64,000 bases of DNA from an archaeon (GTDB lineage Archaea; Iainarchaeota; Iainarchaeia; Iainarchaeales; JAAZKV01): contig JBAZKP010000003.1 in NCBI GenBank assembly GCA_041650735.1, forward strand, positions 25,823 to 89,822. The letters are read 5' to 3'. Every line of letters begins with the position of its first letter. Position 1 is the first letter of the stretch. The position numbers were made by a program, and so were the translations under genes. Under the pieces are notes generated by a model that made no database searches, had not been told where the DNA came from, and saw only the letters and a list, made by a program, of their open reading frames with translations. Shown one piece after another: positions 34,274-61,098 of this stretch.

Positions 34274-34302
34274 ACAATCCCTTTTTTTTTAATTAATATA
34301 AA

Positions 34303-34620: not shown

Positions 34621-34637
34621 TTGTTACACCAAACTTG

Positions 34638-34922: not shown

Positions 34923-34972
34923 CCTTCCTTTTCTAAATATTATTGTTTTCGGTGATTTATTAATCTACCTTA

Positions 34973-35305: not shown

Positions 35306-35366
35306 TTTTTCACCAATTTCTCGCTTTTTTCATTAATTATTATTCTTTTATTTTAAGCACAAATAT

Positions 35367-38800: not shown

Positions 38801-41800
38801 AGTAGTTGTTTCATTAATTTGACTTTCAGTCGGTGGATTCCAAGTACGACTTCCATCCGATAACTGGTTTTCAATTCCTTTTGATGTCGCCGACCCATCG
38901 GCGTTTTTTGTCGCATCGGTTTCTGCTGGTTTATCAGAAGTATTGGTTGCTGAACTATCAGGATTATCAGTTGTTGTTTCTGAGTGTCCCGGGTTCCATG
39001 TTGAGCCTATCATGTTTCCTAGTGCTGCTCCCATCATTGCACCTGCTACTGCTTGTGTCCAATCAAAGTCTGCGTCTTCTTTTCCCCATATGCATTCGTC
39101 TGCTTTAACATTTACTGTTTCTGTGAGCATTCTGTTTGTGAGTATTATTGAGTCTTCTGAGCCTGAACCTATTAAATTTAATTCAAATTTATTCAGATTA
39201 AAGTATTTTCCTTCTGGTTCCAAAAATGTTACTGGTGCTTCTCCGATGAATGTGAATCCTGCTGTTCCTCTTGCTCTCGCGTGTACTGTTACACCATAGC
39301 TCCCTGGCAGGGATGGTCCGTATGCTTCTATCTCTTGTGATTTTCCTTGGATTGTAAATGCTTTTTTGCTTAGAGAGATTTTTCCTTCTACTCCTCCTGA
39401 GCATCCTGAATCATTTTTGCATAATATTACATCTATTGTTTGTCCTAAGCATGAGGATGCATCTATTGTTATTTTTGCTTTTTCTTTGAATTCTACTGGT
39501 GCTGCATCCCCTGTTATGCTCATGCATTCTTTCAGGTTAACTACATTTACTGTATAAGTTACTGTTCCTGGATTGCTTTTTACTGTTTGTCCTTGGAATT
39601 TAGCTTCAAAGCTTAGTTGTATTGAAACTGCTTTTCCTAGTGCTTCTGTTCCTGGCGCAAATGTTAATGTGCCGAATAATTTTTCTCCTGCCCCTATTTT
39701 GTCAAGTACTTTTCTTTTTCCTCCATCTAGTGCTGTTCTTCCTACGCTTGAGCCTGTTGAGTTCCTGATTGAGATTTCTGCTATTCCTGGTATTTCTGTT
39801 GGGGAGGTTACAGATAGTGCCTCTAATGGGATATTCACATTGTCTGATGCGCATGCATTAATCATTTCAAAATCAAATCTTGCTTGTGCTTTTTCTGTTA
39901 CCGCGGTTGTCTTGCCTGGTTTTAGTATTATGCAGTCTTCCCCTGGGTTTGCTTCAGAGGACACTGTTACTGTTAGTGGAATATTTACATCATAGGTTAA
40001 ATGTAATTCAGGTTGTTCGAATATTACTTTTATTGAGCCTTGTACTGTTATTGGTTCAATGAAATTATCCTGTGTTATGCTGTTTGCCAATCTTATCCTC
40101 AATAATTCAATGTCCAAAGTATCCTCTGCTTTTACTGTTCTGTCTTCGTTTGCAATTTCTTCAAAGTAACCGTTCATTGCATCTTCATTTATTGTGTCTT
40201 TGAATTTTGCATCAAACTGTAACGATTTTATTATTAGGTTTTGTTTTGAGAGGTTAGCAAATGTTACTTGTTTTATTTCTTCTCTTTTTGAAAAAGTATT
40301 TAATGTTACAAGTATTTCTTCAGGAGTAAAAGCTATTATTTGGTCTGATACTAAGAGAGAGTACATTTGTCTTGAGTATCCTTCTTTTGTTATTTCAACT
40401 AGTACTCTTGTTTTCTGGAATAATGCACCTGAATCAACTATTGCTCTTCCTAACCTGTCTGTTTCTTTTGAATCCACCATGTATTGTTCAAATCCTGGTT
40501 CTTTTGCATAGCTTTTTACTATTGCTCCCGGCAGGTAATCTCCTTTTTCATCTGTAACATCCACCTCTATTTGAGTGTTCATGAGTGCGGGTATGAATTG
40601 CGGGCTTATTGAAACCACAAAGTCTTTTTCTTTCACTATTTCAAAGCTTGTTTCTTTTGTGTAAATTATTCTTCCCTCTGATTTTAATTCAAATCTTATT
40701 ATTTCTGCCCCTTCTTTCATTCCTTCTATTGTCATTTCAATATCAATGGTAGTATTTTTTTCAAAACTATTGAGTTCAATGTTTTCTGCCTTATATATTT
40801 CTCTGTCATTTGTTGTTGTTCCTACTGAATCTTTTATTTTGTAGTTCTTTATTTTCACTCTTTTTTCTTCTTGTTCATCTCCAACAACTGTAATATTCAA
40901 ATAAACTGGTTTACTGTTTTTGCCGTAATCAATCTCTGAATTATTTAAAAAAGTAACATGGTAAGTATGATCAGTTATTTGTTTCATTGTGTAAGGAGAA
41001 TCAATATACAAATCATCTTTTTTTGAATAAAGCCATTCTGAATTAGAGCAGAATCCTTCTTCGCATATTGCTTCTGTTCCAACATAATAAACATTTGACT
41101 GGTATGTGTCAGCATAGAAATCCTGTTGTGCATTGCTTGGAGGGAGTCTTGTGTTGTCAAAATTTCCTCTGTAAAAGAATTGTAGTTCTTTGTTTGGAGG
41201 CGCTGTTTTGCTTATTCTAAACCATACTTTTACTTCTCTTGTTCCTTGCCCGAAATTTCTCCACAAAGTATTGCTCCATTTTGCTAATCCATCTGTTGTA
41301 TTTTCTGAATCATAAGAGTATCCTTTTTCTGGGTCATATGTTGTTCCTCTTGTTTCGGAGGAAATGTTTGCCCCTTCAACTGAATCAATTGCCATTACAT
41401 CATTTTCCAGCATTGTTTGTTTTCCTGCCCTGAAATGGAATAGTACCTCATTGTATTCTTTGTCTGAATTAATATTGAATTTTGCGTAATATTTTTTTCC
41501 TGCAGCCATTGTTTGTATTAAAGCATCATTTTCATTGTAGATTCCTATTAATTTTATTTCGGGCTCGGATATTTGTTTTAACATTGTTACGTTGAAGGTG
41601 TATGTTTTGTCCGGCCATAGCACTGTTGGAACTGTGTAATAATCTTCATATGTTTCTGCTTCTAATTTTACATATATTGTTTGCCCTGCTTTTATGCTTC
41701 TTGTTGCTTTTCCTTTTTCCACTGAAACTATTCCTGCTAATCCGTGTTCATCAATCATTTTTCCATCAATAGTCATTATTTCTGCAGTGCCATCAACCAA

Positions 41801-43396
41801 ATCTCCTGCTTCGTTAAGCACATTGAGTTTTATTGTTGCTGAGCCTACTTGCATTGTAATGTTGAAAACATTTTCCCTATCAATTGCCACTAATTTTTCT
41901 GCCGAGGCTCCTATGAATGGTCCTTTTATTGCATAGGCATATACAATTCCTTCAACTTTTCCTGCAATGAATTCTGCTTCTCCATTCAAATCAGTAAGAG
42001 AATAATTTTTTGCCTGATATAATTCAACTATCCCCTCATTTTCTTTGTATTTGAGCATTACTTTTGCATTTATTACTTGTAATCCGTCCTGGTCAACTAC
42101 TTTTATTTTTACTTTTCCTGCATTCAGGCTTGTTATTCTCCCAAGCTCCATTGTTACATTCATATCTCCCGTTAATTCTTGTTCTATTTCTTTTGGAAAA
42201 TATCCTCCGTTCAAATCCCCTAGTTTTTTTGCTGCAAATTTGTAAGTTCCAAGGTCCATGAAAGTAAATACTGCTCTTCCATCTGAACCTGTTTTTGTGC
42301 TTGCAATTTCTCTCCCATAAGAATCTTTCGCATTTACTATCGCATCAACTATTAACGCACCCGATAATTCATCAACCGTTGTTATAGTTACTCTTGATTT
42401 TATTGTTTTTGATACCTCTACCACTATTTCTGTTGAATTATCCACCTCAATTGTTTTTGTTACGATTCCATAATTATTTCTTGAATCAGAGATTGAAAGG
42501 AAATATGTTCCTTCCTGCACTGGTATCGTAAGCTCGGATGCTGACCCTGTTTGTAAACTCCCATCATCCCCATAAGTATTAGCCCCTGTTAATTTTATTT
42601 TGAAACTCGTATCATTAACAGGGTAACCGTTTGACCTTATTTTTATTTTCAAGCTTCCAAGAGTTTGCTCATTTGGTTCGAGGTATAAATCATAAAGCGT
42701 TGAATTAACTAGGTATGTTTTTTGTTTGTATTTTGGATTTGAAACTGTTGCCTGTAATCTGCAGTTAATCGGCTCTGTTACTTCAATAGGTCCTGTTGCA
42801 TCAAAGGTTGCTGTTTGGGGTTGTGGTATTATTGATGAATTTTCACATGAAAAATTTAACTGGATTTCTTCAGAAGGGTTGAATCCTGAAGAAGTTTTTA
42901 CAAATATTTTTTTTAATACTTCTTTGAAAACTACTGAAGGTGCTTTTAATTTTATTATTTCATTTAGATTTTCATTTACTGGAAAGGATTGTGAAAATAC
43001 TCCTTTGCTTATGTTTATGTCAAATACAAGCTCCTGTCCTTGTTTTATTCCTATAAAAGTTATTGCTCCTTCAGCATCTGTTCTTGCATTAAGGTCCTGA
43101 ATTTTTGTATTCCCCTGCATTAATTTTGCAAAGATTAGTGTGTCATAAACCGGTTTGTTGTCATTGGTTTTTATTGTGAAAGTTGCACTGTATTCTTGGT
43201 TAGCGCTTATTAGAACAAAAGCACCAAAAATAATTAATAAGAAAATTATTAATAAGAATAAAAGAAAGCTTGGAATTACTGTATCAACTGCATCTATTAC
43301 CCCGTAGACAGGGATTTTTTTGTCAACAGCATCCCAGAAGGAGTACCATTTCTCTTCAAGAGAGTAGTAAAAATCCTTTATTGCCTCAAGTACCAT
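35861..43396 (-). CDS. Giant membrane-anchored surface protein, paralogue 1 (~2511 aa)
   Basis: An uninterrupted 7.5-kb ORF in AT-rich DNA. It has a conserved N-terminus 'KDFYYSLEEKWYSFWD...IPSF', one TM segment, many carboxypeptidase-regulatory/Ig-like beta-sandwich repeats, a central S/T/N-rich module flanked by Gly-zipper-like segments, and a conserved Cys-containing C-terminal region. The ATG at 43396 aligns with the paralogues (the track GTG is at 43405). Confidence 0.9.
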   Translation of the reverse strand: MVLEAIKDFYYSLEEKWYSFWDAVDKKIPVYGVIDAVDTVIPSFLLFLLIIFLLIIFGAFVLISANQEYSATFTIKTNDNKPVYDTLIFAKLMQGNTKIQDLNARTDAEGAITFIGIKQGQELVFDINISKGVFSQSFPVNENLNEIIKLKAPSVVFKEVLKKIFVKTSSGFNPSEEIQLNFSCENSSIIPQPQTATFDATGPIEVTEPINCRLQATVSNPKYKQKTYLVNSTLYDLYLEPNEQTLGSLKIKIRSNGYPVNDTSFKIKLTGANTYGDDGSLQTGSASELTIPVQEGTYFLSISDSRNNYGIVTKTIEVDNSTEIVVEVSKTIKSRVTITTVDELSGALIVDAIVNAKDSYGREIASTKTGSDGRAVFTFMDLGTYKFAAKKLGDLNGGYFPKEIEQELTGDMNVTMELGRITSLNAGKVKIKVVDQDGLQVINAKVMLKYKENEGIVELYQAKNYSLTDLNGEAEFIAGKVEGIVYAYAIKGPFIGASAEKLVAIDRENVFNITMQVGSATIKLNVLNEAGDLVDGTAEIMTIDGKMIDEHGLAGIVSVEKGKATRSIKAGQTIYVKLEAETYEDYYTVPTVLWPDKTYTFNVTMLKQISEPEIKLIGIYNENDALIQTMAAGKKYYAKFNINSDKEYNEVLFHFRAGKQTMLENDVMAIDSVEGANISSETRGTTYDPEKGYSYDSENTTDGLAKWSNTLWRNFGQGTREVKVWFRISKTAPPNKELQFFYRGNFDNTRLPPSNAQQDFYADTYQSNVYYVGTEAICEEGFCSNSEWLYSKKDDLYIDSPYTMKQITDHTYHVTFLNNSEIDYGKNSKPVYLNITVVGDEQEEKRVKIKNYKIKDSVGTTTNDREIYKAENIELNSFEKNTTIDIEMTIEGMKEGAEIIRFELKSEGRIIYTKETSFEIVKEKDFVVSISPQFIPALMNTQIEVDVTDEKGDYLPGAIVKSYAKEPGFEQYMVDSKETDRLGRAIVDSGALFQKTRVLVEITKEGYSRQMYSLLVSDQIIAFTPEEILVTLNTFSKREEIKQVTFANLSKQNLIIKSLQFDAKFKDTINEDAMNGYFEEIANEDRTVKAEDTLDIELLRIRLANSITQDNFIEPITVQGSIKVIFEQPELHLTYDVNIPLTVTVSSEANPGEDCIILKPGKTTAVTEKAQARFDFEMINACASDNVNIPLEALSVTSPTEIPGIAEISIRNSTGSSVGRTALDGGKRKVLDKIGAGEKLFGTLTFAPGTEALGKAVSIQLSFEAKFQGQTVKSNPGTVTYTVNVVNLKECMSITGDAAPVEFKEKAKITIDASSCLGQTIDVILCKNDSGCSGGVEGKISLSKKAFTIQGKSQEIEAYGPSLPGSYGVTVHARARGTAGFTFIGEAPVTFLEPEGKYFNLNKFELNLIGSGSEDSIILTNRMLTETVNVKADECIWGKEDADFDWTQAVAGAMMGAALGNMIGSTWNPGHSETTTDNPDSSATNTSDKPAETDATKNADGSATSKGIENQLSDGSRTWNPPTESQINETTTVNYSKGDGTLGTIDVQRYDAGNGTYGYRGTVNGTTIESDSISGFSSKATSAISAYNNSFTGKIHNWIGRHTWGAAKPVKSTSTTWDDIGGTSTTNIPPIVRDTTYDTWKDTSKEPGASASDFINQKVPVAHFGSTTTTSGSFNWFQASTTIIGAVIGGYLMGNADLYKCDEHFQTVPYDDFVILLQGTTVGVTPPSGSEDENGSAQKVVPPDAGELTFTLEGIGSEWDFTDAQYSSEETVALKFTNDGLNDPQPRYGTLTIGATVHNHGKQIHSVDGENTSTSAGTEFDYDVQCFKPTFGNYWVGAEEDAGLCNGVSESTYSQKYHLRVISGEPSGEEAYIKKANSCYFGALTGATGKEALPRIKLDWSWDAISADQCDYMNPEYVYCDATQFLIALTKKLANLDEFMANNGSKFSCPPDIIQQQVTDTIDEINSQKLTVAEGFVGIEDITISTNLDTDITIATVKVKNNTGADVTTYMSVAWKGEGEPATDVKQWTVPSGESETTFEAETPEYEGLYFFTAVVNGPGSTDKKTISRAFINREMDNNCWMPQTTKSIAGLPGLMYYVANIDSITYTDAVQDETDLYNTINFGVYLTKDAFTEDFFNDFKQHYRETLLQGLNVNSKQKDIVDYLTSGNFKIKKKFSGDNTIEPGLYDVYVNLNAKDNFRVIDGNNTNIEVTLLLVKKPSVDSPFYSMPFDGVLGEKGGRQGYGSVYMNNDEEEITISNFDNRVLTFNNAASNGVTSITTKTKTNFEALNSSVASRGQLASATVTGSTAELVLTPNYATPVIAKQTLQGTSGNMAFSVENTKKAVSTGGNLSYWTGAAKSKDFYGSNAVEVYSNSPDYRLSKLGENVYGFEFNDATRAGNMYLKSIFFIPHDESRYGLISNDVGTSFWTTSNEFNSTAELLGIPGMKYNSLQNNSYMKSLQDLFDAVQEGKVCVSSDGSSTSFWWNPAVIENTTGSTNSLANKELELVGAN

Positions 43397-43475
43397 AGTA
43401 AACACTTACACGTGCAAAAACGATTGTTCCTATAAGAAAAACTGCTTCAAAGTATTTAAATATATACTCGGCAAA

Positions 43476-43895
43476 TCACGTCAAATCAGCCAATTCAAGC
43501 ATTTGCTTGGTATTTAGGACTTTTACAACTTTTTGTTTTTTTAACTCGCTGTCATTTGACCAAAGCACAGCGTTTTTGTATTGTAAACAGCATGCAATGA
43601 ATGGAGCATCATCAATATCCAGTCCCTTCAATATCTCTTTTGCAGTCAAGTAATGCTCACTTATTTCTAAAGAGGGTACTATTTGTACTTTTTGCATTAA
43701 AAGGAATAAAACTTTGTTAAGATTTTCTTCCGAGAGTCCTGATTTTTTTAACACTAATTCCTTATGCTCTTCTAGTTCATCAAGTACTGCTGAAGGCAGT
43801 AAGAACTCAAGTTCACTTACAAGAATAATTTTTCTTGTAAGCGAGTCTTTTATGATTGCAGAGAACAAAATATTAGAATCAATGATGAACTTCAT
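43476..43895 (-). CDS. vapC: PIN-domain ribonuclease (VapC-like toxin)
   Basis: 139 aa. 'MKFIIDSNILFSAI' carries the first acidic residue, with 'DDAPFIACCL' and 'WSNDSEL' near the C-terminus. It overlaps the upstream antitoxin-like gene. Confidence 0.75.
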   Translation of the reverse strand: MKFIIDSNILFSAIIKDSLTRKIILVSELEFLLPSAVLDELEEHKELVLKKSGLSEENLNKVLFLLMQKVQIVPSLEISEHYLTAKEILKGLDIDDAPFIACCLQYKNAVLWSNDSELKKQKVVKVLNTKQMLELADLT

Positions 43896-44112
43896 TCAAA
43901 AACCTTTTCGCAGCAAGCGAATTGATTTTTTTTCCAAGTTCCAAAGCATCTTTTTCGGTGAGTTTGCTGTTTTTCAGCAATTCATCTGCCATTCGCAGGG
44001 TTTCAATTTTTTTGATTACTGCTTGTCTTGCAACTTCACTCCATTTTACTTCAGGGAATTTCTTCATTTCTTCTTGAATTTCCTTCGGCATGGACAAAGT
44101 CATATTACCCAT
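43879..44112 (-). CDS. Putative VapB-like antitoxin
   Basis: About 77 aa, 'MGNMTLSMPKEIQEEMKKFPEVKWSEVARQAVIKKIE...'. It overlaps the PIN gene start by 17 nt, which is the typical type II TA arrangement. Confidence 0.65.
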   Translation of the reverse strand: MGNMTLSMPKEIQEEMKKFPEVKWSEVARQAVIKKIETLRMADELLKNSKLTEKDALELGKKINSLAAKRFLNEVHH

Positions 44113-44317
44113 AAAATCACAAATATATATGTGCAAACACATATTTAATTGTTTTGGAATAAAACCAATTCACCAAAAATAATTTTCCAAAATCAATATT
44201 TATACTTTTGCGGAGTTGTATGCCGGCTAATAAAATTATTTTAAATTTCGTTAATTCAAAAACATGTCCAGGAAAATGGGTTTAATAGAAATAGTTTCTA
44301 GTTTTAACAGAATTAAT

Positions 44318-47300
44318 TTATCTGCTTGCTATGCAAGTACTTTCTTTTGCATCTATTGTCCCTTTCATTTCTTGTCTTAATCCAGTATTATTCCAGTAAT
44401 AATCTCCGCCTATTACACATACTTTTTCTTCTCTTACCAAATCAAGTACATTCTTCAATGTCTTTATTCCTGCTCCTGTTGTGCTTACTTGTATTAGGCT
44501 TCCGTTTCCGTAAGTGCTTTCAAAGCTTGCTGTGTCTTTTGCCCCTGTTACTTTCACAATTGTTGATGTGTCTTGTGGTGCGAAGAATGAACCGTAGAAT
44601 GATGCTGTTCCTGACACTGTAGCCATTGACCAACCTAATCCGTATCCATCATATCCTGTCATTATTCCGCTTGCTTTTGAATCAGGTGTATTATAGTAAG
44701 CGCTCATTGGTGATCCATCAAAGGTTACGCATCCTTGTCCTATTCCTGTCCATGAAATAAATGAGCTTCCTGTTTCCTGTGGCTGTCCATTTACCTCTGC
44801 TGAATAGAATACAAATGCATCCGTGCTTGTATCCCTTGTAATATTTAGTATCAATGGCACCGCTACGCTTGGTGTTATAACGAAATCAACATCGTCTCCT
44901 ACTCTTGATATGCTTAATACATTTCCTCTTGTTGGGGAGCTGTTCAGCTGGTTGAATGCTTGTGTTCCTTTTATCACTGAAACACTTACATTTGTTACTG
45001 CATTGCTTCTTGCATTCGGCTGTGCTATTACATTTGAGTGCCCATCAACAGCTATTACGAACAAATCCTCTGTTTTTTGTATATAACCAGCACCATAACC
45101 GTTTCTTCCATCCTCAGAACTCATTCCAACTACCCCATCAAATGCAACATTATATATAGGGTAGAATGGATCCGGTTCTCCTTGTGGAGCCAAATCAACT
45201 ATAATGCTTTCAATATTATTATTGTCCCACTGCCATGAGCTGTTTGCGAACTTAATTGTTATTGTTGCATCATACTTGCCTGGTTCCCAAGCAGTTGGTT
45301 TTGTTGGCCAAGTAACCTTGAACTTGTCACTCAAGAACAAATCCTCTATTCCTTGTTGTTTGTATTCTACTGGTGCTGCTGCTATTTCGCCCAGGAATGC
45401 ATCAAAATCATTCTTGAAATCTGCACTGAAACCGTCTCTCACTAAATTTGTTTTGAATGAAATTGCTTCTAATGCAGCTTTTCCTTCTTCAGTGTCAAGT
45501 AAATTGTTTGCTGCTAAAACTTTTTCGAAGTAATCTCTATTAGTTTTGTATTCTCTGCAAGCTGCTGCTCCGCTTGAGCCAAGCACTAGAGCTGTTTTTA
45601 TTGTGTCATTAATTGTCAAATTGTTTTCGCATCCTTTGCATAGAGTTGGTTCCATTGTAATATCAACATTAAATGTTCCTGTGCCTACTTTATTAGTATC
45701 AACATTACATGTGTACTTTGTCCCGCTTGTAAATGATTTTGTTTCAGGTGCGCACACATTCACTACCTCAGTGCCATCCTGTCTAGTGAACTTGTAAGTT
45801 AGTTTAGCGCTCATTTCAATGTTATTATTTGTTTCAACTGTTGTTTCCAGTGATGCTCCGTTTGTAGCTGGTTTTGCTACAATACTTGTTATTCCTACAT
45901 CAAGTGAATTCTCACTCAATTTCTGTGTTTTTGTTCCAACTATATCTATTGCTGTTGGGCAAGTAGACAAGTTATGTGTTTTGAAGAATTCCTGCAAGTA
46001 CATTACTTTCTTCAGTGTTGAGATTGAGAATTGTGTTGAATCACAATAAATATAGTTCGCATTATTCTCTGAATCACATTCTTGTATATCTATTTCATCC
46101 CAGTTCCAAGCTAGTTTTATTTTTGGTACAGCCTCTGTTCCTGTTACTCCTTTCTTCCCATCCACATCACAATTGCTTATTTCTTTTACTTGGCAAGGGT
46201 AAGTGTTTGGCCCACAGTCAACGTATTCGTATGCATCAAACAATAAGTGGAATTTCTTTACATAAGCCCTTAGCTCTTTTACCACTAAATCATTGCTGTC
46301 AATAGCTGCTATTTCTTCATTGCTTGCTCCTGGTGGGGAGAACAAATCTTTTATTGAACCCCATATTCCGCCTTCGCTTTCTTTCTCTAATTCTTCTCCT
46401 CTTTCAATTGCTTTTTGTTTTACGTATTCATAATTGTAGTCTGTTTCGTAAACTTTTTCTTCCCCAGTTACTGTTAATAATCCTACAAATGGCTGGTATA
46501 TTGTTTTGTTCTTTACTTGTCCAGGGTTAGAGAATTCTAATTCTCTTACCTCTACTTGTCCCATTGTTGCACTTAAAGCCTGTGGATTGTATAATACATT
46601 TCCTGTATATTGTGAATTATTTGTTGTATTCGTGTTATCATTATTAGCTGTGTTGTCAGTAGCTGTATTATCAGTTGTATTACTTGTTCCTGTTGATTGC
46701 ATTCCATAATAATTATCATAATCGTAACTTACTTCTCCTACCACCATTTGTACTCCATCAGGACTCTCTAATGCAACATCCTTTATTTCTACTAAAGGCA
46801 CTGCGAATGTATCAGAGTAATCTATTTCAGTGTTCTGTGCATTCAGCCACTCCCAAAAGAAAGTAGTTGCTGCTCCTGCTAATGCTCCTCCCCACCAAGA
46901 ATTAGCCATCATTCCAGCACCAAAGCCCATACCGCCCTGCATTAATGCATTCATAGCAGTACTATAATTATCTGAACCCCTATTCTTGTTAATCGTGCTA
47001 GTACTTGAAGCTAGGATGAAACTAGCAGTGCCCGCACTATTTTCTGAAGAAGTCATGTAATAAGACAATGGCTTGTTCGTGTTTGAATTTGTCCATACTC
47101 CTCCTGAACTAGTAAAGGGCATTACACCACTTGGGGTCTCGATTATAGCCATTTGATTATTAGATTTTGGAGATAATCCTACAGCAAATAAATCTGGATT
47201 ATTATCTATTGAAGTAGAGAACAATCTCCAAGGATCAAATTTCCCACAATTAGGATCATATTTTGCACAATTATACTCTCCTGTTTTTAGATCCTTATCA

Positions 47301-50300
47301 AATTTTAAACTGCCAAGAGTCAAAACACCATTCGCATTAGTGGCTTGAGTATCCATCTCTTGTAATTTTGTAGTCGCTGCATCTTTTGTCAAACCTTGAG
47401 GAGCAGATTTTGTCCCAATACCAGCAGATGCTAAATCCCCATCCCTGCCATCAATAGCAGCATTAATCAACAAAGGTCGAACTGATGCCATTACTTGCTG
47501 ATTAGTAACAGCTTCTTGTTTTATTTCTTGTTTAGAACTATCCGCAGTAGATTTAATTTCTGCTTTTGCAACTTCAATCTCTTTAGGAGTAGCTTTTTCT
47601 TGAGCTGCAACAACATCTACTTGCTTTAAAGCATCTTGTTCGGCAGCATCAATAGAATCCATATCGCTGGTTTCATCATATTCTTCATCAAATTCATCAG
47701 AAGAGTCAATAGCAGCTTGTTTTGACTTATCTTGTTCATCTGCCGGAGCAGCAACTGCATCTTTCACTTTCGCATCAACTTCGTCTTTTTTTGATTTAAA
47801 TAAAGACTTAATTTTATCAACTGCCTTGTCCTTAACATCAACAATATCAGATTTTTTTGAGTCCACATATCTCTTCAAAGCAGCTGTATACCCACCGCAA
47901 TCAGGAGCTTTAATTACAGAAAGTTTGCTCTCATCAAAAGCAGCAGTTATCTTACCAGATAATTCATTAACGAGGGCTGCTGATTTATTTCCCGTACCTA
48001 TCTTTTTAGCAGTTAAATCAGAATTAAGCTTATCAGCCTTAGCATAATGTTCTTTTTCAAGCTGTTCAGCACCCATTTCCCCTGCAGCTAATTTAGTCTT
48101 AATGTCATCAAATTCTTTGTCAAGATCAGCATTAATTTTATCACATTCGGATTTTAACTCAGTTTTCAAATTATCAAATTTGCTAGAGTACTCAGTAATT
48201 AACTTGCCAAGACTATCAATTGATGCAGTCAAATCTGTTTTTCTTTTCTGAAGCTCAGCTATATACTTATTATATTTGCCAACACAACCCGGATCATCTT
48301 TAACATTCTTACTGGTTAATTTTTCTTGCGCGGTACTAATGTTTTTTTCATTTTCTTTTAAAAGCGATTCCACCCTATCTTTCTGAACATTTATTTTATT
48401 TATTGCCTCTGTTTTTAACTTGTCCACAGTAATCATTCCAGTTCCACAATCAGTAGAAACATTTCTTTTTGCATTTAATTTTACCTTTTCATTTTGTTTG
48501 TCAAGATTTTTTTCGCCATTGTTCTTTGTCCACCCATATTTGCTATCGCTTGCCGGTTGTTTTATGTACCCCCCTATTCCGCCTGTGATTGCGCCCATTA
48601 GTGCCATTTTCCATAGTCTTGAGTTGTCATATGGTATTTCTCCTGTTACTTGGGCGCTTGTTGTTTTTTGTACGCAATTATTTTTTAAGTATCCTCTGTC
48701 TGTTCCATCGAATTCATTGAATTGTGAGTCATATACATCATATTCATATCTTGAGAGAGTAAAGCAGCTTGACGCATCCTCTATTATTACTTTTACATTT
48801 CCAATTAGTTCAAGTGTGGTTCCTTTTTGTCTTCCGTATACTAGTAAGTTGTATGCTCCTGGTGTTTGTCCTTCTGATGCTGTTACTGTTACATCTTTGT
48901 TTTCTCCTGCATTTAGTGAGAATGTTTTGTTTGATATTGCTCCTTGCAAATCCCCTGTATCTATTTGGAAGTCTGCTTTTGTTTTGCATGAATTTGTTAT
49001 TGAGAAACTCCCTGTTCCTGGTGCTGATATTGTAATTAAATCAGCTCCTAGTACTATGCAGTCTTGTAAGTTTTCGTAAATTATATTGTATTTCATTTCT
49101 GCTGTGAGGGTTTGGCTTTTTGAATCTGTTTGGTTTTGTGCTTCAAATATTATTGAGCCGGTTGCTGTTCCGCTTGAGCCTGCTGCCGGAGCGAATTTTA
49201 TTGTTACTGGTACTTTTTCGCCTGGGTTTAGGATTGTTTTGAATACTCTTGCATATGCTGTCCCTAATTCTACTTGCACTGTTTTTGATTGTGCATTAAA
49301 TGTTCCGCCTATTGTTCCTGTTGAGCTTATTGTTGCTCCCAGGTTCTTCAAGGATACTGGTTTTCCTTCTACTATACAATTATTTTTTATTTCAAAGCTT
49401 GTTTCTATTTGGTTTCCTCTTGTTACTGCTTCCCAGTTTGTTTGTGTTATTTCTAAGCACGATGGATTGTCAACATCTTTTCCTAATCCTACTCTGATTT
49501 TTGCTTCTATTTCTTTTGTCCATTCTTTTCCTTCTGCCCCAACAGTTATTTCGAATTTCCCTTCAAGGTCTTCTGCTGTTGGCACTATTGTTGCTGATAT
49601 TACTTTGAAATCAAATTCTTCGTAATCCTGTGATTTTATTTTTGTTCCTATGTAATTGTTGAACCAGGACTCTATTTGTGCTTCATTGAGCACTCCTTTT
49701 AGTTTCCCTGTCAATTTGATTGATATTATTGCTAAATCTAATCCTGTTTTGTTTTCTATTTTAACTGTTTTTATGTCCTGTAATTTTGTCTGTGGATTAA
49801 CTGTGAATGCTAATGATTCAGGGGTAACATCTATTACATCTTCAGCAATATTGAATTCTTTTACAAGTGTTTCGTATTCAGGTTTTTCTATTTGTAACTT
49901 TAATTTCTCTCCTGGGAATGATGCTGGTATGCTTAGTGTTGCTAATCCTAATTTGTTTGTTGTTTTTTCAAGTAGTTTTGTTCCGAATCTGTCATAGATT
50001 TTTACTATTGCTCCTTCTACCTCTATTCCTGTTGCTGTGTTGAATACTTTTACTGTGAGTGATTCTGGTTTTCCTGAAACGATTTTTGGCATATCATCAG
50101 TGAACTCAGTTCCTTTCATGAATTTTACATTCATTTTCTTGTCTGAACCAACATTTACTGTGAATGATTTTTCAAATACAAGTGAATTGTCTTCCCTTAT
50201 TCTTAGTTTTATTGTCCCTGTTCCTGTTTTTTGCGGAGTTACATCTACTGAAACGATATCTATTGAGGAATTTTTAACAAATCCTGGTGTATCTATCCAT

Positions 50301-52939
50301 TCTGTTTTGTAAGCATTTACTGTTCCTTGTACTGGAGCATATTTTGGAGTTAGGATTGAGTATGTTCCTAAGTAAAGGTTTTCTTCAGGGTTTTCCAATA
50401 GTGTTTTTGCCCTGTCAAATCCTATCATAGAGTTATTCATTACTTTTATTGATACTCCGTATTTTGAATTATTTTTTGCTTCAAATGAATCAACAAATGT
50501 TTGAGTAAAATTCTCAGGGTCAGTGTAGGTTGAGGTTATGCAAAAGGATTTTTCTTCTGTAGGGCTCTCGCATAGTGTTTCTGTTCCCACTGACACGTAT
50601 GCTTCTTTTGTTGAAGCATATAGTTCCTGTTTTACGCTTGAGCTCTGGTTTGTGCCTAGCTCATTATCAACTAAATCTCTTTCGTATTCTCCGTCAATTG
50701 CCCCCCATGCCCTGTATCCTATATCAATTCTTTCTTCTGTTTGTGCTGTCGGCCTAATCTTTACTTTTACTCCCACAATTATTTTTCCAGGCACATAAGA
50801 TTCACTTAGCCATCTTACTTCTGCCCATTTGCTTTCTTCAAGATTAAGGTATTTTTCATCAGTAGAATATCCTTTTGGCTTGTTATATGTTGCTCCTGTT
50901 GTAACCATTTTTTTTGCTGGAGCAATTACATCTTTGATAAATATTTTGTCTAGTTCTGTTTTTATGACATTATCTTTTCCCATTCTTACAAAGAATCCTA
51001 ATTCATCATAGCTTTTTGGGGAAATTACTTCAAATAATGCATCATATTCTTGTCCTGATTCTACTTTTAGTGCTCTTGCTTCATTTTTGTACAATCCGAG
51101 GAAATTAATTTTTAATTCATCTGCCGGAGGTTTTGACAAATTTATTTCAAAGTTTATTGTTCCTGCTCCGATTGTTTGTTTTGGTATTGTGGTGTAGCTT
51201 TCATATCCTTCTTTTTTTATTACTGCATAAACTTTTTTATCAGACTTGATGTTGAATTCGATTGTTCCGTCAAGGTTTTCAACCATTTTTTTTCCGCTTG
51301 CAGGATTACTTACTTTTCCTTGAGGAATGTATTCATCAAATAATTGTACTTCAGCGAATTGTATTGGCAGGTTATCAATGTCTTTTACTGTTACCTTTAC
51401 TGTTCCTAATGGTATTTCTAATGACACAATGAATGGCTCTACCGCTGTTTTTGCATTGAATTCTTTTGCTTCACTCCATCCTGAGTAAGTTGCTTTGAAT
51501 GCAAATACTTTGTATGTTTCCCCTGTTTTCGAGTTGCTTATTGGGTTCCATTCAACGTATCCGTTAAAATCAGTTAATTTTTCCTGGTAAGCTAATTTGT
51601 ATTCATCTTCATCCTTGCTTCCGAATAATGCTACTTTTGCGTATGCAACTGGTTTTCCATCCTGGTCCATTACTCTTGCTTTTAATTTGTTTCCGCATTG
51701 CCCAATATCTCTTACCATATTTAGTATTACTGAATCCCCTATGTTTGCATCTTTGCTTGCGTCACAATAACCTTCTTTTGTTGCCATTACTAAGTATGAG
51801 CCTTCTTCTGCTATCTCAAATAATACTTCTCCTGTTCCGTTTGTATCGCGGTTTATTACTTCAACGTAGGTATCCCCCACTTTTTTGCTTAGTGTTACAT
51901 ATGCATCTTCTGCTTCAGCCGATCCTTGGTATACTTGTGCTTTAATGTATCCTATAAAATTTTTCTCCATTGCTATGTCAATTGTTTTTTGCCCTTCTGC
52001 TTTTGTGATTGAAGTTATTACTGTTTCTTTTTGTTTGTATCCTTGTTCTTGCCTTACTCTGAATTTGTAATCTCCTTCAGCTAAATCAAATGTTGCTTGC
52101 CCATTGCTTGCTTGTTTTGTATCAGTAGGAATGTAAGTATTTTCTGAGGTAAATGCTTGTACTGTTACCGGTTCTGTTATTAGTATTCCGTTTAGTTTCA
52201 AATTTATTGTTACTTTAACAATTTCTTTTGGTTCTTTTGAAGATAATGTAAATGTGCTTGCTGGCGCTGTTAGTGTGAATGATTTTGTTTCATATTTTGG
52301 TGAGCTTACTGTTACTGTGAGTGTTCCGCATTCTTCTGTGTAGGAAACATTTGTTGTTCCGTTGTATATTGTTTCTTCTTGTGGTGCTTCTGAACCTGAA
52401 GAGCATCTATAGGACAGAGTCATTTCTCCTGTTGCTGTTTCTCCGGTTCCTGTTTCAAATCTAATTGATTTTTGGGAAATAAAGTGCGCTGAAATAGGGA
52501 GGATTATTTCTTCTACTTTTGAAAATTCATCAATGAACACTGGTACTGTTGTTTGTTTGTCTCCTTTTTGTGCGGTCACTTCAATAGTTGTATTGAAGGG
52601 CACTGTTACTGCTTCAACTAAACCAAATTCGTTTGAAATTAATTCTCTGTCAATTCCTTGTACTATTACTTTTGCTTCGCTTACTGCTCCGCCCTCCGAA
52701 TCAACTATGCTTAGTTTTAGTGTTGCTTGTGATTGTGTAACAATTCCAAAGAGCCCTGTTATTGTGAGTAAAAGGATAAGAAAAATTATTATTAAAAATA
52801 GCGCAAAACTTGGTATTACATTATCAATTGGGTCAATTATTTTATATACTGGAAGGTGTTCATCTGCTTTATCCAAGAAAGAGTACCATTTCTCTTCCCC
52901 TAGGTAGTAAATATCCTTCAGCTTTTCCCCAATACCCAT
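44318..52939 (-). CDS. Giant membrane-anchored surface protein, paralogue 2 (2873 aa)
   Basis: An 8.6-kb ORF with the same N-terminal motif ('KDIYYLGEEKWYSFLD...IPSF'), TM segment, beta-sandwich repeats and conserved C-terminal modules as paralogue 1. The central ~535-aa module carries a long coiled-coil and acidic region. Confidence 0.9.
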   Translation of the reverse strand: MGIGEKLKDIYYLGEEKWYSFLDKADEHLPVYKIIDPIDNVIPSFALFLIIIFLILLLTITGLFGIVTQSQATLKLSIVDSEGGAVSEAKVIVQGIDRELISNEFGLVEAVTVPFNTTIEVTAQKGDKQTTVPVFIDEFSKVEEIILPISAHFISQKSIRFETGTGETATGEMTLSYRCSSGSEAPQEETIYNGTTNVSYTEECGTLTVTVSSPKYETKSFTLTAPASTFTLSSKEPKEIVKVTINLKLNGILITEPVTVQAFTSENTYIPTDTKQASNGQATFDLAEGDYKFRVRQEQGYKQKETVITSITKAEGQKTIDIAMEKNFIGYIKAQVYQGSAEAEDAYVTLSKKVGDTYVEVINRDTNGTGEVLFEIAEEGSYLVMATKEGYCDASKDANIGDSVILNMVRDIGQCGNKLKARVMDQDGKPVAYAKVALFGSKDEDEYKLAYQEKLTDFNGYVEWNPISNSKTGETYKVFAFKATYSGWSEAKEFNAKTAVEPFIVSLEIPLGTVKVTVKDIDNLPIQFAEVQLFDEYIPQGKVSNPASGKKMVENLDGTIEFNIKSDKKVYAVIKKEGYESYTTIPKQTIGAGTINFEINLSKPPADELKINFLGLYKNEARALKVESGQEYDALFEVISPKSYDELGFFVRMGKDNVIKTELDKIFIKDVIAPAKKMVTTGATYNKPKGYSTDEKYLNLEESKWAEVRWLSESYVPGKIIVGVKVKIRPTAQTEERIDIGYRAWGAIDGEYERDLVDNELGTNQSSSVKQELYASTKEAYVSVGTETLCESPTEEKSFCITSTYTDPENFTQTFVDSFEAKNNSKYGVSIKVMNNSMIGFDRAKTLLENPEENLYLGTYSILTPKYAPVQGTVNAYKTEWIDTPGFVKNSSIDIVSVDVTPQKTGTGTIKLRIREDNSLVFEKSFTVNVGSDKKMNVKFMKGTEFTDDMPKIVSGKPESLTVKVFNTATGIEVEGAIVKIYDRFGTKLLEKTTNKLGLATLSIPASFPGEKLKLQIEKPEYETLVKEFNIAEDVIDVTPESLAFTVNPQTKLQDIKTVKIENKTGLDLAIISIKLTGKLKGVLNEAQIESWFNNYIGTKIKSQDYEEFDFKVISATIVPTAEDLEGKFEITVGAEGKEWTKEIEAKIRVGLGKDVDNPSCLEITQTNWEAVTRGNQIETSFEIKNNCIVEGKPVSLKNLGATISSTGTIGGTFNAQSKTVQVELGTAYARVFKTILNPGEKVPVTIKFAPAAGSSGTATGSIIFEAQNQTDSKSQTLTAEMKYNIIYENLQDCIVLGADLITISAPGTGSFSITNSCKTKADFQIDTGDLQGAISNKTFSLNAGENKDVTVTASEGQTPGAYNLLVYGRQKGTTLELIGNVKVIIEDASSCFTLSRYEYDVYDSQFNEFDGTDRGYLKNNCVQKTTSAQVTGEIPYDNSRLWKMALMGAITGGIGGYIKQPASDSKYGWTKNNGEKNLDKQNEKVKLNAKRNVSTDCGTGMITVDKLKTEAINKINVQKDRVESLLKENEKNISTAQEKLTSKNVKDDPGCVGKYNKYIAELQKRKTDLTASIDSLGKLITEYSSKFDNLKTELKSECDKINADLDKEFDDIKTKLAAGEMGAEQLEKEHYAKADKLNSDLTAKKIGTGNKSAALVNELSGKITAAFDESKLSVIKAPDCGGYTAALKRYVDSKKSDIVDVKDKAVDKIKSLFKSKKDEVDAKVKDAVAAPADEQDKSKQAAIDSSDEFDEEYDETSDMDSIDAAEQDALKQVDVVAAQEKATPKEIEVAKAEIKSTADSSKQEIKQEAVTNQQVMASVRPLLINAAIDGRDGDLASAGIGTKSAPQGLTKDAATTKLQEMDTQATNANGVLTLGSLKFDKDLKTGEYNCAKYDPNCGKFDPWRLFSTSIDNNPDLFAVGLSPKSNNQMAIIETPSGVMPFTSSGGVWTNSNTNKPLSYYMTSSENSAGTASFILASSTSTINKNRGSDNYSTAMNALMQGGMGFGAGMMANSWWGGALAGAATTFFWEWLNAQNTEIDYSDTFAVPLVEIKDVALESPDGVQMVVGEVSYDYDNYYGMQSTGTSNTTDNTATDNTANNDNTNTTNNSQYTGNVLYNPQALSATMGQVEVRELEFSNPGQVKNKTIYQPFVGLLTVTGEEKVYETDYNYEYVKQKAIERGEELEKESEGGIWGSIKDLFSPPGASNEEIAAIDSNDLVVKELRAYVKKFHLLFDAYEYVDCGPNTYPCQVKEISNCDVDGKKGVTGTEAVPKIKLAWNWDEIDIQECDSENNANYIYCDSTQFSISTLKKVMYLQEFFKTHNLSTCPTAIDIVGTKTQKLSENSLDVGITSIVAKPATNGASLETTVETNNNIEMSAKLTYKFTRQDGTEVVNVCAPETKSFTSGTKYTCNVDTNKVGTGTFNVDITMEPTLCKGCENNLTINDTIKTALVLGSSGAAACREYKTNRDYFEKVLAANNLLDTEEGKAALEAISFKTNLVRDGFSADFKNDFDAFLGEIAAAPVEYKQQGIEDLFLSDKFKVTWPTKPTAWEPGKYDATITIKFANSSWQWDNNNIESIIVDLAPQGEPDPFYPIYNVAFDGVVGMSSEDGRNGYGAGYIQKTEDLFVIAVDGHSNVIAQPNARSNAVTNVSVSVIKGTQAFNQLNSSPTRGNVLSISRVGDDVDFVITPSVAVPLILNITRDTSTDAFVFYSAEVNGQPQETGSSFISWTGIGQGCVTFDGSPMSAYYNTPDSKASGIMTGYDGYGLGWSMATVSGTASFYGSFFAPQDTSTIVKVTGAKDTASFESTYGNGSLIQVSTTGAGIKTLKNVLDLVREEKVCVIGGDYYWNNTGLRQEMKGTIDAKESTCIASR

Positions 52940-53728: not shown

Positions 53729-56700
53729 TTAGTTTCCTTGTAGTAATTTTTTCTCATTCCAGATTATTCCGTCTTGTACAGCGCATGCTCTTTCTTCTTT
53801 TACTTCATTAATCAATTTTTCTAAAGTCAAATCACCAGAATTAAATGCCTCTATTTCTATTGGAGTGCTTGTTTGTGTTGATAATGCACTTGTTCTTGTT
53901 TTTGGTTCTGGACTAACTGCCAGCACTTGCATTGTTATTGTTCCTCCAACTTTCGCGCTATTGAATGCAATACTGATTTTTTGCGGAGCATATAATATTC
54001 CTTTTAATTCCTGTGGAGTTTGTGATGGTGCTATTGGAATAACATATGAGCCTCCTGATAACATATCCGCTCCTTTCAGTACTCCTGCAACATACCAGTT
54101 AACTAATTCAGTTGGTACTTTGATTGTGTCTGATATAACCTTGTACGATGCTCTTGTTTCATTACCATATAAGTTTAGTTTTAATAGTACAGGTACTCTT
54201 TGGTAGGATACAATTTTTCCTTCTTTTGTTTTTTCAACTGCAATTGCTTTTGTTGCATTGTCAAGTATTTTTGCTGAATCCACAGAATCTGTTTTGAATC
54301 CTGCTTGTAATAAAATATTGCTTGTTGCTTTTGTTGCACCCGTAACAGCACTCTTTTCGCCGAATGTTGCTGTCACTTCTTTGTCCGTTCCAAGAACATA
54401 ATCGAGTTCTACAGGGTAATTTCCTATTTCTTTGCTTGTATCAACAAACTTGATTGTGTATTCTTTAATTATATTTGAAAGGTTTCCTGTAATTGTTAAA
54501 GAGAGTTTTTCAAATGAATTAATCTTCGTGAGCAACACCTTTGCAGTTGCATTTTTGTGGATACTGTTTAAGCTTGAATTTTGTGCATAAATTACTTCAA
54601 TGTCTTCCTTGCTCATCTCTGTTTTTTCAATTACTCCTTTCTTTATTCTTGCATGCTCGCTCATCCATTTGAATGTATCAAGCTTTAATTCAACCGCTGA
54701 CCCGCACAAGACTATATTGCAGCTCTTGTCATCAAGTTTGCATTCTGCAACTGCATTTGCTGCTTTGAGAAGTTCTACGTACCTTTTTACTGACATATAC
54801 CATTTTGCACCCACTTTAGCCATGCCTAAATTTGTCAAATCGCTTGCCAATTCTGTTTTATCATCTATCTCAAGCAATAATTTGTCTTTGTCTTTTTGGT
54901 CATTAAGAACATTTACCATTACATCTAGTGCTAAATCATTGTTCTTTGAAATTATTGTGTTCTTTACATCAGTATTGCTGATTTCTAATTTGTAAGAATT
55001 GTCCATAGCTAGTCCAATATCTCCTTTATAGAAACTCAAATCGCTTTCAGTGCATGATTTTACCGTTTGTTTCTGTACTTGTTTATATAATTCGCTTAGT
55101 TTTACTCCGCTGTATGCGCTTGACAAATCCTTTATTGTTTGTATTCTGTTGTATAAGAATAATTGTAATTGTTCTGAATTACAGAAATTGTTTGTGCAGT
55201 AAGTACTTATTTCGGTTGAAGGAATTTCAAGTCCTGTGTATTTTATTTTGTCAAATCCGTATTCCTTATAGTCTCCTGATTCGCATGTTCCTTTTGCTTC
55301 TGCTTCAATCAGTAATCTGTCAACTGTTCCTATGTTTATGAATGATACGCATGCAGGATTTGCTTTGAGCACTATATCCACTGCAGCTTGTTTTTCAACA
55401 TTAGTTGATTTTAAAGTTAATTTTCTTGTTGCTATTTCAGCTTTCAGTTTGTCTTCGCAATCATTTCCTGCCACTGGTATTACTTTTGTGCATTCCTCTA
55501 TAGTTGTTGGCTTGTAATTTTGCTTTGTTATTAGTACTTTTAATGTCCATACGAGTTCTGTTGAGTCAAAGTTTACTGCTCTTGTTACTTTTCCTGATAC
55601 AGGCATTTCAACATACACACAGTTAGCAATTAATCCTGATCTGTCTACTTCAACCATTAGGTTTGAGCCTCTTGTGTTATTGAATAAGCTTCCTGTTCCT
55701 GTTTCAAGTATTCTTATTATTGCTCCGCCTGCTTTTTCTGCTGGCACTATTGGTGTTTTTACTGTTATGCTGTCAAATAATCCGCAGTTCTTTGATGCTT
55801 CTCCACTGCTCTTGTCTGAAGTGTTTTCCATTTGTTTGCTTCTGTAATAATATAAATCATATGATGGGTATGCTGAGCTTGCTGTGCTTGGTGCTGCACC
55901 TATTCTTAGTGCTGGTGGCTCCGCTATGTACTTGTAGCTTGAACCATTGTATTGTTCATCAGGTATTGCTCCAAGAGTTACTCCTTTTGATGCCCAGTAA
56001 TCCTGGATATCAAGTGCGTTTTTGTTCTGACAGTCTTTTGCTTTTGCATTTGGATCTCCCCAGTTGATTGCTGAATCAATGCTTTCTCCTAATCTCCATA
56101 TATCTGATAATGTTATTGGGAATTCCATGCATTCTGCTGAATTGTACTGGTTTGTGTAACTAATATTCAAGTTTCCATATACATTTGTTCTTGCATCTGT
56201 TTCTGTTGCCCATTGTCTTATATCTCCAAGGTTCTGGAATAATCCGTATGAGCCGTTGCTTGAGTTAAATAATTTTCTTTGCGGGATGTATTGTGCACTC
56301 GGCATTACTTCGAAATCAACTCTTTCAATTGAACCGTTGTTTCCTTGTTGTACTGTTCTGTTTCTTACTCTTGTTCCTGTGATTAGTGAACAATTACTTG
56401 CTGCGCATCCGTTTGGCTGTATATAATTTTGGTAAGAACCATATTGTCCTCCTAATGGGTAACTTGAGGAATATGCTGATTCAGCTCCTTGCTGGAAGTA
56501 TTGTGCTGACACACCATATTGTGATTGTGGTGCCGAGCATTCTATTGTTGCTACATTGCTTCTTGATAATTGTACTCCTTGATCGTAACAGTAATTGTAT
56601 ACTGAGTATTTTTGTGGTTTGTAGATGAATGAATTCAAACTTATTTTTGTTACATTTGTTTTTATGCAGTCAGTATCAATGTCCCCTAATTTGCGTACTG

Positions 56701-60991: not shown

Positions 60992-61098
60992 TCCAACCAC
61001 TTAATATCCGTCCCCAATACCACTTATTCACTATAATACTATAATATTCAAGCCTTTATTAATTTAACTTTGCTCTATTTGCCGGAGTTCTTCAATAA

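Follow-up and report, generated by a model that had tools for sequence, protein, structure and literature searches.

The stretch of DNA analysed here (the window: 64,000 nucleotides (nt) of contig JBAZKP010000003.1, archaeal assembly GCA_041650735.1, positions 25,823 to 89,822 of the forward strand) carries on its minus strand three giant open reading frames (ORFs) in tandem, G1, G2 and G3. The question raised by this locus is why G1 and G2 contain central inserts of unrelated sequence that are bracketed in both proteins by two glycine-zipper segments (segment 1 and segment 2), and where such an insert is placed with respect to the membrane. A first interpretation, made from the letters of the window alone (the sequence-only reading), had proposed either additional transmembrane (TM) helices, with the central module back in the cytoplasm, or latent elements for insertion into another membrane. 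The analysis favours a different explanation, with a probability of about 0.5: the bracket is the split descendant of a Cys-flanked membrane hairpin, exported and zipped as a neck at or near the membrane, where it presents a recombining, strain-specific surface module. The coordinates of the main features are shown in Table 1.

G1 and G2 are giant surface proteins with an N-terminal anchor, and the uncultured archaeon that encodes them is most likely of DPANN type. The nearest relatives are throughout uncultured archaeal metagenome-assembled genomes (MAGs), some of them labelled Diapherotrites or 'ainarchaeum'. G1, G2 and G3 each begin with a conserved head of about 45 residues and one strongly hydrophobic helix, with a Kyte-Doolittle hydropathy in 19-residue windows (KD19) of 3.0 to 3.5 and net negative charge on either side; this N-terminal anchor was found in every homologue. 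Behind it stand CarboxypepD_reg and other immunoglobulin (Ig)-like Pfam domains, the arrangement of repeat surface proteins with an N-terminal anchor, the CarboxypepD_reg scores of G2 (48.3 bits) and G3 (90.2 bits) being above the cut-off of 32.3 and that of G1 (29.5 bits) just below it. Foldseek returned Ig-like adhesin folds for models of G1 and G2 built with AlphaFold2 (AF2), in which the flanking beta domains are confident (predicted local distance difference test, pLDDT, 84-96). The last beta-sandwich ahead of the bracket in G2 matched Caf1M, MSP, ASH and Cep192 domains in Foldseek and, weakly, Cep192_D4 in Pfam. A PDB sequence search with the C-module of G2 gave no useful match, only a single hit with E = 0.14.

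The four Gly-rich hydrophobic segments are real and lie within 14 nt of the positions first given for them, and the distances between the segment motifs, measured as 538 residues in G2 and 214 in G1, agree with the earlier figures of about 535 and about 212. The most canonical one is segment 1 of G1, with the four-Gly zipper GAMMGAALGNMIG (Gly at i, i+4, i+8 and i+12); segment 2 of G2 holds a conserved 'GGxALxGA' core. Significance of the Gly motif within a single sequence was considered and rejected: in shuffled sequences about one chain of three Gly spaced by four arises by chance in each protein, and the four-Gly chain of G1 segment 1 has a P of about 0.07, which is marginal only. The bracket is accepted as real because it is conserved in register across homologues, not because of the motif in one protein. 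About 30 G1-type and about 34 G2-type homologues were retrieved, and both segments are in register in all of the about 64 sequences inspected, down to 23-30% identity of the flanks; in the G2 clade, segment 1 is conserved in 30 of 30 sequences. The G1-clade consensus is 'W...L.GAM.GA..GNMIG' for segment 1 and 'GW.T..GAV.GG.LAY..(C)' for segment 2, and that of the G2 clade 'W..AL.GA..GG..GY.KSGK' and 'G.G...GS(..)ALGGA', so that a repeated small-xxx-small register along the helix is conserved in the G1 clade and a related pattern in the G2 clade. Conservation of the bracket with exchange of the insert among orthologues had been set beforehand as a test by the sequence-only reading, and this is what the about 64 homologues show.

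The proposed homology of the flanks between G1 and G2 was observed on the N-terminal side up to segment 1; on the C-terminal side it is detectable by BLAST only 160-195 residues past segment 2. BLASTP aligned residues 7-1473 of G1 with 5-1463 of G2, ending at segment 1, and then residues 1856-2489 with 2226-2850. Profiles of the G1 and G2 families gave a collinear alignment of 2293 columns over the whole protein length, of which the printed part ended before the hairpin junction, and local profile alignments placed segments 1 and 2 of both families in register (P about 3-4e-4). The inserts of G1 and G2 gave no BLAST match to each other, in agreement with the view that they are unrelated, and that of G1 is S/T/N-rich, as had been described (37.5% S+T+N).

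The origin of the bracket was found in the wider family. Residues 1640-2514 of G1 (end of the insert, segment 2 and C-module) were searched against 1.84 billion cluster representatives, which yielded 518 representatives at E <= 1e-3 and 428 at E <= 1e-10, most of them of 2200-3250 residues. With a crude filter, in which an element counts as contiguous if it has one uncharged stretch of 38 residues or more, or stretches separated by 25 residues at most, 89 full-length representatives were classified as contiguous (42), split (20), with a single segment (17) or with none (10). The contiguous element is Gly/Ala-rich and hydrophobic, has 40-70 uncharged residues at about residues 1440-1630, and consists of two helices and a short turn, as in homologue P0091 (AGIGLGGAVAGAGIGYAAVLLGASTGIGAVVGLVVFMIIMFMTLFG); the inserts of the 20 split brackets measure 44-916 residues. 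Contiguous relatives carry the flank motifs of G1, 'AnlCeWg' ahead of helix A (segment 1) and 'eDPC..th.L.DYvINLaG' past helix B (segment 2), and since motifs and site are shared, the bracket is a contiguous hairpin split at its turn. In BLAST, residues 1441-1682 of G1 correspond to just 33 residues of P0091, and in the nearly insert-less homologues P0023 and P0025 the helices are joined by a gap of 7-11 residues. Two GxxxG helices adjacent through a short turn are present in P0023, P0025, P0091 and P0150 and absent from G1 and G2. The junction between N-module and C-module of G1 and G2 descends from this two-helix glycine-zipper hairpin, which in many relatives is hydrophobic enough for the cell's own membrane; in the G1 and G2 lineages the turn was opened, a module was inserted, and both helices became far less hydrophobic.

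A separate observation concerns the turn of the contiguous hairpins. Many of these relatives carry CPPC, CPVC or CPAC in the turn that joins the two hydrophobic helices or close to it, as in 'LWWCPPCIAAG'; the CPPC-type motif was seen in P0111, P0114, P0115, P0155, P0167 and P0199 (about residues 1430-1540). It could be a redox site, a metal site or a disulfide-locked turn.

To be regarded as TM-grade, a segment needed some 19 uncharged residues or more, a KD19 from about 1.6 upwards and an apparent insertion free energy near or below 0. The segments of G1 and G2 do not reach this level on simple scales. Their KD19 is 1.04 and 1.07 (G1 segments 1 and 2) and 0.83 and 0.72 (G2), against 3.0-3.5 in the N-terminal anchors; the summed Hessa values are +5.5, +5.3, +7.7 and +7.7 kcal/mol, against -5.9 to -7.6 in the anchors, the KD19 and Hessa values of G2 not always coming from the same 19-residue window (scanned independently, its lowest Hessa sums are +7.6 for segment 1 and +5.9 for segment 2). 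In the G2 clade, segment 1 has 11-21 uncharged residues (15 in G2 itself), bounded by D, R or K, and in some members it is shorter by a further helical turn. The median KD19 of contiguous forms is 1.74 for helix A and 2.24 for helix B, with both at 1.6 or more in 59%; for split forms the medians are 1.16 and 1.35, and none has both helices at that level. Hydrophobicity of segment 1 drops with insert length (Spearman -0.57). A link of the segments with membranes, as suggested by the sequence-only reading, thus holds for the family, where an uninterrupted TM-grade element occupies the site in many relatives; the three-TM arrangement of G1 and G2 themselves is disfavoured.

The inserts behave as cassettes that are replaced as a whole. 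Identity between G1 and its orthologues is 18-29% in the insert and 54-69% in the flanks of the same proteins. Between G2 and homologue P0032 it is 97% in the N-module, 23% in the insert, which is background level, and 96% in the C-module. In blastn, the window and the contig of P0032 (locus L001) share 92-95% identity from 62617 to 48555 and from 47004 to 44300, with nothing between; this is the only break in about 18 kb, none being found in G3 or in the intergenic regions. One border of the cassette lies 3 codons past segment 1, the other where the conserved 'SFILASS' motif ahead of segment 2 ends. Conserved flanks, a swapped centre and sharp borders between close strains, as in a cassette-type variable surface protein, were therefore all found. 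Insert length varies from 7 to about 690 residues across the about 64 homologues (83-412 in most of the G1 clade, 295-687 in the G2 clade), and similarity among inserts is confined to small subgroups, weak, and mostly in the first about 200 residues of G2-clade inserts. No second copy of the G2 insert DNA, or of the insert of any homologue, was found in the 64-kb window, which contains no silent donors. Diversification by a diversity-generating retroelement (DGR) was rejected, as whole segments are replaced without residual similarity and no second copy is present in the window; neither a template/variable repeat nor A-specific point variation was observed, in an analysis that included no search aimed at a reverse transcriptase.

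With respect to their content, LysM was above the Pfam cut-off in the inserts of three G2-clade orthologues, a Big_7 Ig domain in that of P0064 and fn3 in that of P0198 (914 residues). This last match was the only one added by a Pfam search of 16 further inserts, and most insert domains are unannotated; the insert of G2 matched nothing in Pfam or in a PDB sequence search. Several inserts contain repeated Cys-rich modules with 8-26 Cys. The inserts have 1.45 sequons per 100 residues, and their sequon density and S/T/N content match those of the N- and C-modules. LysM, Big_7, fn3, the Cys-rich repeats and the sequon and S/T/N content are extracytoplasmic features.

Pairing of the two helices across the insert is supported, since they are adjacent in contiguous relatives, a Cys pair covaries around them and deletions co-occur. 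The two Cys that flank the bracket of G1 (Table 1) occur as a pair in 24 of 25 sequences of the G1 clade, P0021 lacking both, and the equivalent two positions flank contiguous hairpins, which suggests a disulfide at the outer base of the hairpin. A deletion of 4 residues in segment 1 is seen in 11 G2-clade sequences, all of which are among the 18 with a deletion of 4 residues in segment 2; this pattern is only suggestive of pairing, as the events may be phylogenetically nested.

AF2 models of the junction were built on alignments of 30 (G2) and 25 (G1) sequences. A structure prediction of the bracketed region had been called for by the sequence-only reading, and it gave both segments as helical, at a confidence that is low to moderate (pLDDT 38-73). 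Segment 1 of G2 is predicted as a helix (pLDDT 45-73) and segment 2 as three short helices (38-64); in G1 each segment is a helix of about 20 residues (53-63 and 40-54, respectively). The low confidence of the helices suggests that they have no fixed partner inside the monomer. The insert of G2 starts with four long helices, probably a coiled-coil or helical-bundle stalk (residues 190-252, 261-329, 335-380 and 394-439 of the modelled fragment; pLDDT mostly 62-90, about 45-61 in the last), followed by a disordered acidic, S/T-rich stretch; large portions of both inserts are predicted as disordered. Foldseek searches with both models returned Ig-like and PapD-like domains and generic long-helix proteins, and nothing for the hairpin or the insert.

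A small unit was additionally predicted within the G1 insert, at residues 1533-1598 (38612-38809, minus strand), as a beta-meander and a helix with pLDDT 57-84. Similar sequence occurs in some orthologues, for example 'SS.A.S.Y.NS.TG....W' in P0004.

Under the favoured explanation, the weakened helices would be released by the translocon and, no longer held there, would be exported together with the insert and the remaining protein. Outside the cell they would pair in antiparallel orientation through their small-residue faces, and in G1 a Cys1438-Cys1704 disulfide probably staples the pair. The paired helices would form a neck near the membrane, perhaps lying on it, which in G2 would be prolonged by about 60 residues as a helical stalk. 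This neck would carry a strain-specific module, swapped by recombination as one cassette whose borders are the conserved sequences coding for the helices. Most plausibly, the module would serve to recognise a partner cell or surface, or to evade viruses or competitors.

Several points weigh against this explanation. Confidence of AF2 is low to moderate for both segments, and the contact between the two helices was inferred, not read from AF2 coordinates. The inserts of G1 and G2 themselves contain no recognisable extracellular domain. Hydrophobicity was calculated by simple summing of scale values, not through a trained predictor, and the comparison of contiguous with split forms is biased, the contiguous class being partly picked on hydrophobicity and the sequences being related. 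The positive-inside analysis of flank charges gave no clear topology signal (mean K+R in the 15 residues before and after: 2.2 and 2.4 for segment 1, 1.1 and 0.8 for segment 2; the N-terminal anchor is itself acidic-flanked). The topology of G1 and G2 is inferred, not proven. The K/E-rich coiled coil of the G2 insert would suit the cytoplasm too, and a module put into the turn of a hairpin that spans the membrane is cytoplasmic at the start, so the exported state needs a change of topology during evolution. Finally, low scale values alone leave membrane embedding possible, because Gly-rich hairpins of the SlyB/YfgH type have been described as membrane-inserted GxxxG helices (bioRxiv 10.64898/2025.12.22.696046).

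These last points also favour the three-TM alternative, in which segment 1 would be a stop-transfer sequence, segment 2 a re-initiating anchor, and the variable insert a loop in the cytoplasm between N- and C-modules that lie outside. It has in addition the uninterrupted TM-grade hairpin at the exact site in relatives, and some G1-clade segments have KD19 near 1.5-1.8. For G1 and G2 it is nevertheless disfavoured and considered unlikely. A closely spaced helical hairpin can insert cooperatively, but helices separated by a loop of 200-700 residues must each integrate alone, and this topology therefore predicts equal or greater hydrophobicity in split forms; the opposite was found, no split form having both helices at TM grade. 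Furthermore, the stretch between charged residues in G2-clade segment 1 is short, the inserts carry LysM, Big_7, fn3 and Cys-rich repeats, and hypervariability of a whole cassette beside flanks of 96-97% identity is typical of exposed rather than cytoplasmic regions.

The other idea of the sequence-only reading, a latent insertion device, is very unlikely. Here the helices would be soluble or shielded on the archaeon and, on contact, would zip and insert into the membrane of a host or partner in the manner of a fusion-peptide hairpin. The variable module would give target specificity, an addition that deserves just as little confidence, and the same slight odds apply to the split, weakened hairpin as a conditional insertion element that enters the host or partner membrane once the strain-specific module has bound. 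Apart from the anchor, no 19-residue window of either protein is as interface-seeking as segment 2 (Wimley-White interfacial values of -4.7 kcal/mol in G1 and -7.6 in G2), which fits a surface-lying neck and insertion into another membrane alike. The Gly/Ala/Met/Phe/Trp composition of segment 2 resembles that of viral fusion peptides, a likeness taken as a lead only. In G2 it adjoins long helices, related MAGs have contigs of about 1 Mb, as is typical for host-dependent DPANN archaea, and LysM in some inserts suggests binding to the wall of another cell. On the other hand, the G2 model matched no fusion protein when compared by Foldseek with viral structures and the PDB, the TM-grade contiguous hairpins of relatives would be caught by the cell's own membrane during export, and the host, the contact structure and the trigger are not known, the idea resting on composition only. 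If true, it would describe a recognition-coupled device of DPANN-type archaea for anchoring to or perturbing membranes, evolved from a resident membrane hairpin.

Least probable of all are ordinary flexible Gly-rich linkers or hinges that delimit a disordered or variable region without pairing or membrane role: low to moderate AF2 confidence, the chance frequency of three-Gly GxxxG chains and the predicted disorder of large portions of both inserts fit this, but linkers keep no such register of Gly and hydrophobic positions as is kept in the about 64 sequences with flanks of 23-30% identity, the predictions show either segment as helical over about 20 residues, the two Cys vary together, and the segments are positionally homologous to the strongly hydrophobic two-helix element of relatives.

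Of the systems already described, the glycine-zipper 2TM hairpin of SlyB/YfgH/OsmB-type lipoproteins (PF05433 Rick_17kDa_Anti, PF13488 Gly-zipper_Omp) comes closest, with two short, tightly packing GxxxG helices that are adjacent through a short turn, as in the relatives of the giants; the glycine-zipper domain has been described as membrane-embedded GxxxG helices in oligomeric assemblies (bioRxiv 10.64898/2025.12.22.696046). Residues 1452-1468 of G1 scored below threshold with Gly-zipper_Omp (14.7 bits, cut-off 25) and Rick_17kDa_Anti (12.0 bits, cut-off 24.2), and G2 gave no Pfam match to either. In contrast to these small bacterial lipoproteins, the giants are archaeal, the element lies within a TM-anchored protein of 2500-2900 residues, the helices of G1 and G2 are 214 and 538 residues apart, and a conserved Cys pair stands at the base. 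Since the Pfam scores are sub-threshold and context and split arrangement differ, G1 and G2 are not members of the SlyB/YfgH-type family.

Variable-cassette adhesins and antigenic-variation proteins likewise have conserved flanks, an unrelated centre in near-identical strains and sharp DNA borders. They differ in that here no silent donors are present in the window, the borders are a conserved helical hairpin and not repeats, the organism is an uncultured DPANN-type archaeon, and recombination is the presumed route of exchange. As far as the available parts of their descriptions go, the giant multi-Ig proteins that occur in symbionts and predators with reduced genomes, those of nanohaloarchaea, Omnitrophota and Candidate Phyla Radiation (CPR) bacteria, and 'Giant1-5' of Apilactobacillus kunkeei, are similar in their tandem genes and extracellular products. 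The giants of this locus, with 2400-2900 residues, a large share of a small genome and Ig-like and CarboxypepD_reg repeats, resemble other giants of reduced genomes within those same accounts, but have no detectable sequence relationship with them, and the head with its TM helix, the central hairpin and the C-module are distinctive. Viral class I fusion proteins share a Gly/Ala/aromatic-rich interfacial segment beside long helices; unlike them, G2 had no structural match in BFVD or PDB (Foldseek, with a model of moderate confidence in this region), there is no evidence for trimerisation or a cleavage site, and the segment lies inside the protein, with a resident membrane hairpin as its homologue.

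Literature searches returned no description of the G1/G2 family, which is defined by an N-terminal anchor, about 1400 residues of Ig-type domains, a Cys-flanked glycine-zipper hairpin and a C-module of about 800 residues. Little is known of how reduced-genome archaea of DPANN type recognise and attach to partners, and nearly all of their giant surface proteins lack annotation. The hairpin turn is one precise site at which modules are inserted and exchanged between near-identical strains, and hence a candidate specificity determinant; the family offers a natural series, from contiguous and TM-grade to split and weakly hydrophobic, for domain insertion at the turn of a membrane hairpin.

Table 1. 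Positions of the giant genes and of the elements in and around the bracketed inserts of G1 and G2 (window numbering; aa, residues of the protein).
Feature	Position	Strand	Residues and remarks
G1	35861..43405	-	2514 aa
G1 N-terminal TM anchor	43208..43264	-	aa 48-66; KD19 3.47; summed Hessa -7.6 kcal/mol
G1 Cys1438, in 'VKAxxCxWG'	39092..39094	-	13 aa ahead of segment 1
G1 segment 1, helix A	38999..39061	-	aa 1449-1469; canonical GxxxGxxxGxxxG
G1 segment 1 motif, AVAGAMMGAALGNMIGS	39002..39052	-	aa 1452-1468
G1 variable insert	38372..38998	-	aa 1470-1678; S/T/N-rich; 3 N-x-S/T sequons per 100 aa
G1 segment 2, helix B, WFQASTTIIGAVIGGYLMGN	38312..38371	-	aa 1679-1698
G1 segment 2 motif, STTIIGAVIGGYLMG	38315..38359	-	aa 1683-1697
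G1 Cys1704, in 'YxCxD'	38294..38296	-	6 aa past segment 2; equals 'DPC' after helix B in contiguous relatives
G1 C-module	35864..38311	-	aa 1699-2514
G2	44318..52939	-	2873 aa
G2 N-terminal TM anchor	52748..52804	-	aa 46-64; KD19 3.03; summed Hessa -5.9 kcal/mol
Last Ig-like (PapD/MSP/ASH-like) beta-sandwich of G2 N-module	48632..49072	-	aa 1290-1436; AF2 pLDDT 84-94
G2 segment 1, Gly-zipper helix A, NSRLWKMALMGAITGGIGGYI	48563..48625	-	aa 1439-1459
G2 segment 1 motif, LWKMALMGAITGGIGGYI	48563..48616	-	aa 1442-1459
G2 variable insert	46949..48562	-	aa 1460-1997
Four long helices predicted at start of G2 insert	47756..48505	-	aa 1479-1728; AF2
Cassette without nucleotide similarity to near-identical strain L001	47004..48555	-	G2 aa 1462-1979; blastn
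'G-x-F-[IL]-L-A-[ST]' motif closing G2-clade insert	47003..47023	-	aa 1973-1979; conserved column block in alignment
G2 segment 2, Gly/Ala/Met/aromatic helical region B	46844..46963	-	aa 1993-2032
G2 segment 2 motif, 'ALMQGG...FFWEW'	46847..46948	-	aa 1998-2031
G2 C-module	44321..46843	-	aa 2033-2873; beta-rich, Cys-containing; 27% identity to G1 C-module
G3	53729..61000	-	2423 aa

Additional features of the giants and their surroundings were noted. The head ahead of the anchor is acidic and common to G1, G2 and G3 ('KD.YY..EEKWY.F.DK.D...P.Y..ID.ID.V.PSF'); it is also present in the consensus sequences of the G1 and G2 families and is unusual for a simple signal anchor. The N-termini with this head are encoded on the minus strand at 52805-52939 (G2), 43265-43405 (G1) and 60800-61000 (G3). 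G3 has the N-module alone in common with G1 and G2, and its C-terminal half is unrelated. Where the homology stops, at residues 1278-1350 (56951-57169, minus strand), it has a low-complexity, G/Y/M/S/Q-rich stretch (WNMGYGALMASDYASSMSAYGQSYGG...GYGAQGYGTGYANNF), and the hairpin bracket is absent.

The region has a GC content of about 35% and encodes a family B DNA polymerase, PolB, which was the only Pfam match among ten neighbouring ORFs apart from a sub-threshold XhlA (18.6 against 34.7 bits). Between G2 and G1 lies an ORF of 139 residues (43476..43895, minus strand) with the look of a PIN-domain, VapC-like toxin, judged by eye, and an overlapping ORF of 87 residues (43879..44142, minus strand) may be its antitoxin. 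In locus L002 of a related MAG the G2-like and G1-like genes are just 77 nt apart, and the pair therefore looks like a strain-specific insertion. Directly after G1 (33929-35804, minus strand) there are five small ORFs of 94-145 residues, very hydrophobic and with multiple TM helices, and at the equivalent position of L002 (26740-28679) five ORFs of similar small size were found. Pfam gave no matches for the small ORFs after G1, which could be membrane partners of the giants.

Upstream of G3, an ORF of 480 residues (within 61099-63937, minus strand) is syntenic with an ORF of 487 residues in L002 (region 1-1577), for which Pfam gave no annotation. L002 has a further giant of 2980 residues ahead of the latter, and an ORF of 425 residues at the edge of the window (62660..63937, minus strand), which occupies the position of that giant, may belong to a fourth one. 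A small ORF of 154-167 residues, with no Pfam match, is located between the G3-like and G2-like genes in three loci (window 53030-53533, minus strand; L001 9437-9910; L002 9307-9771).

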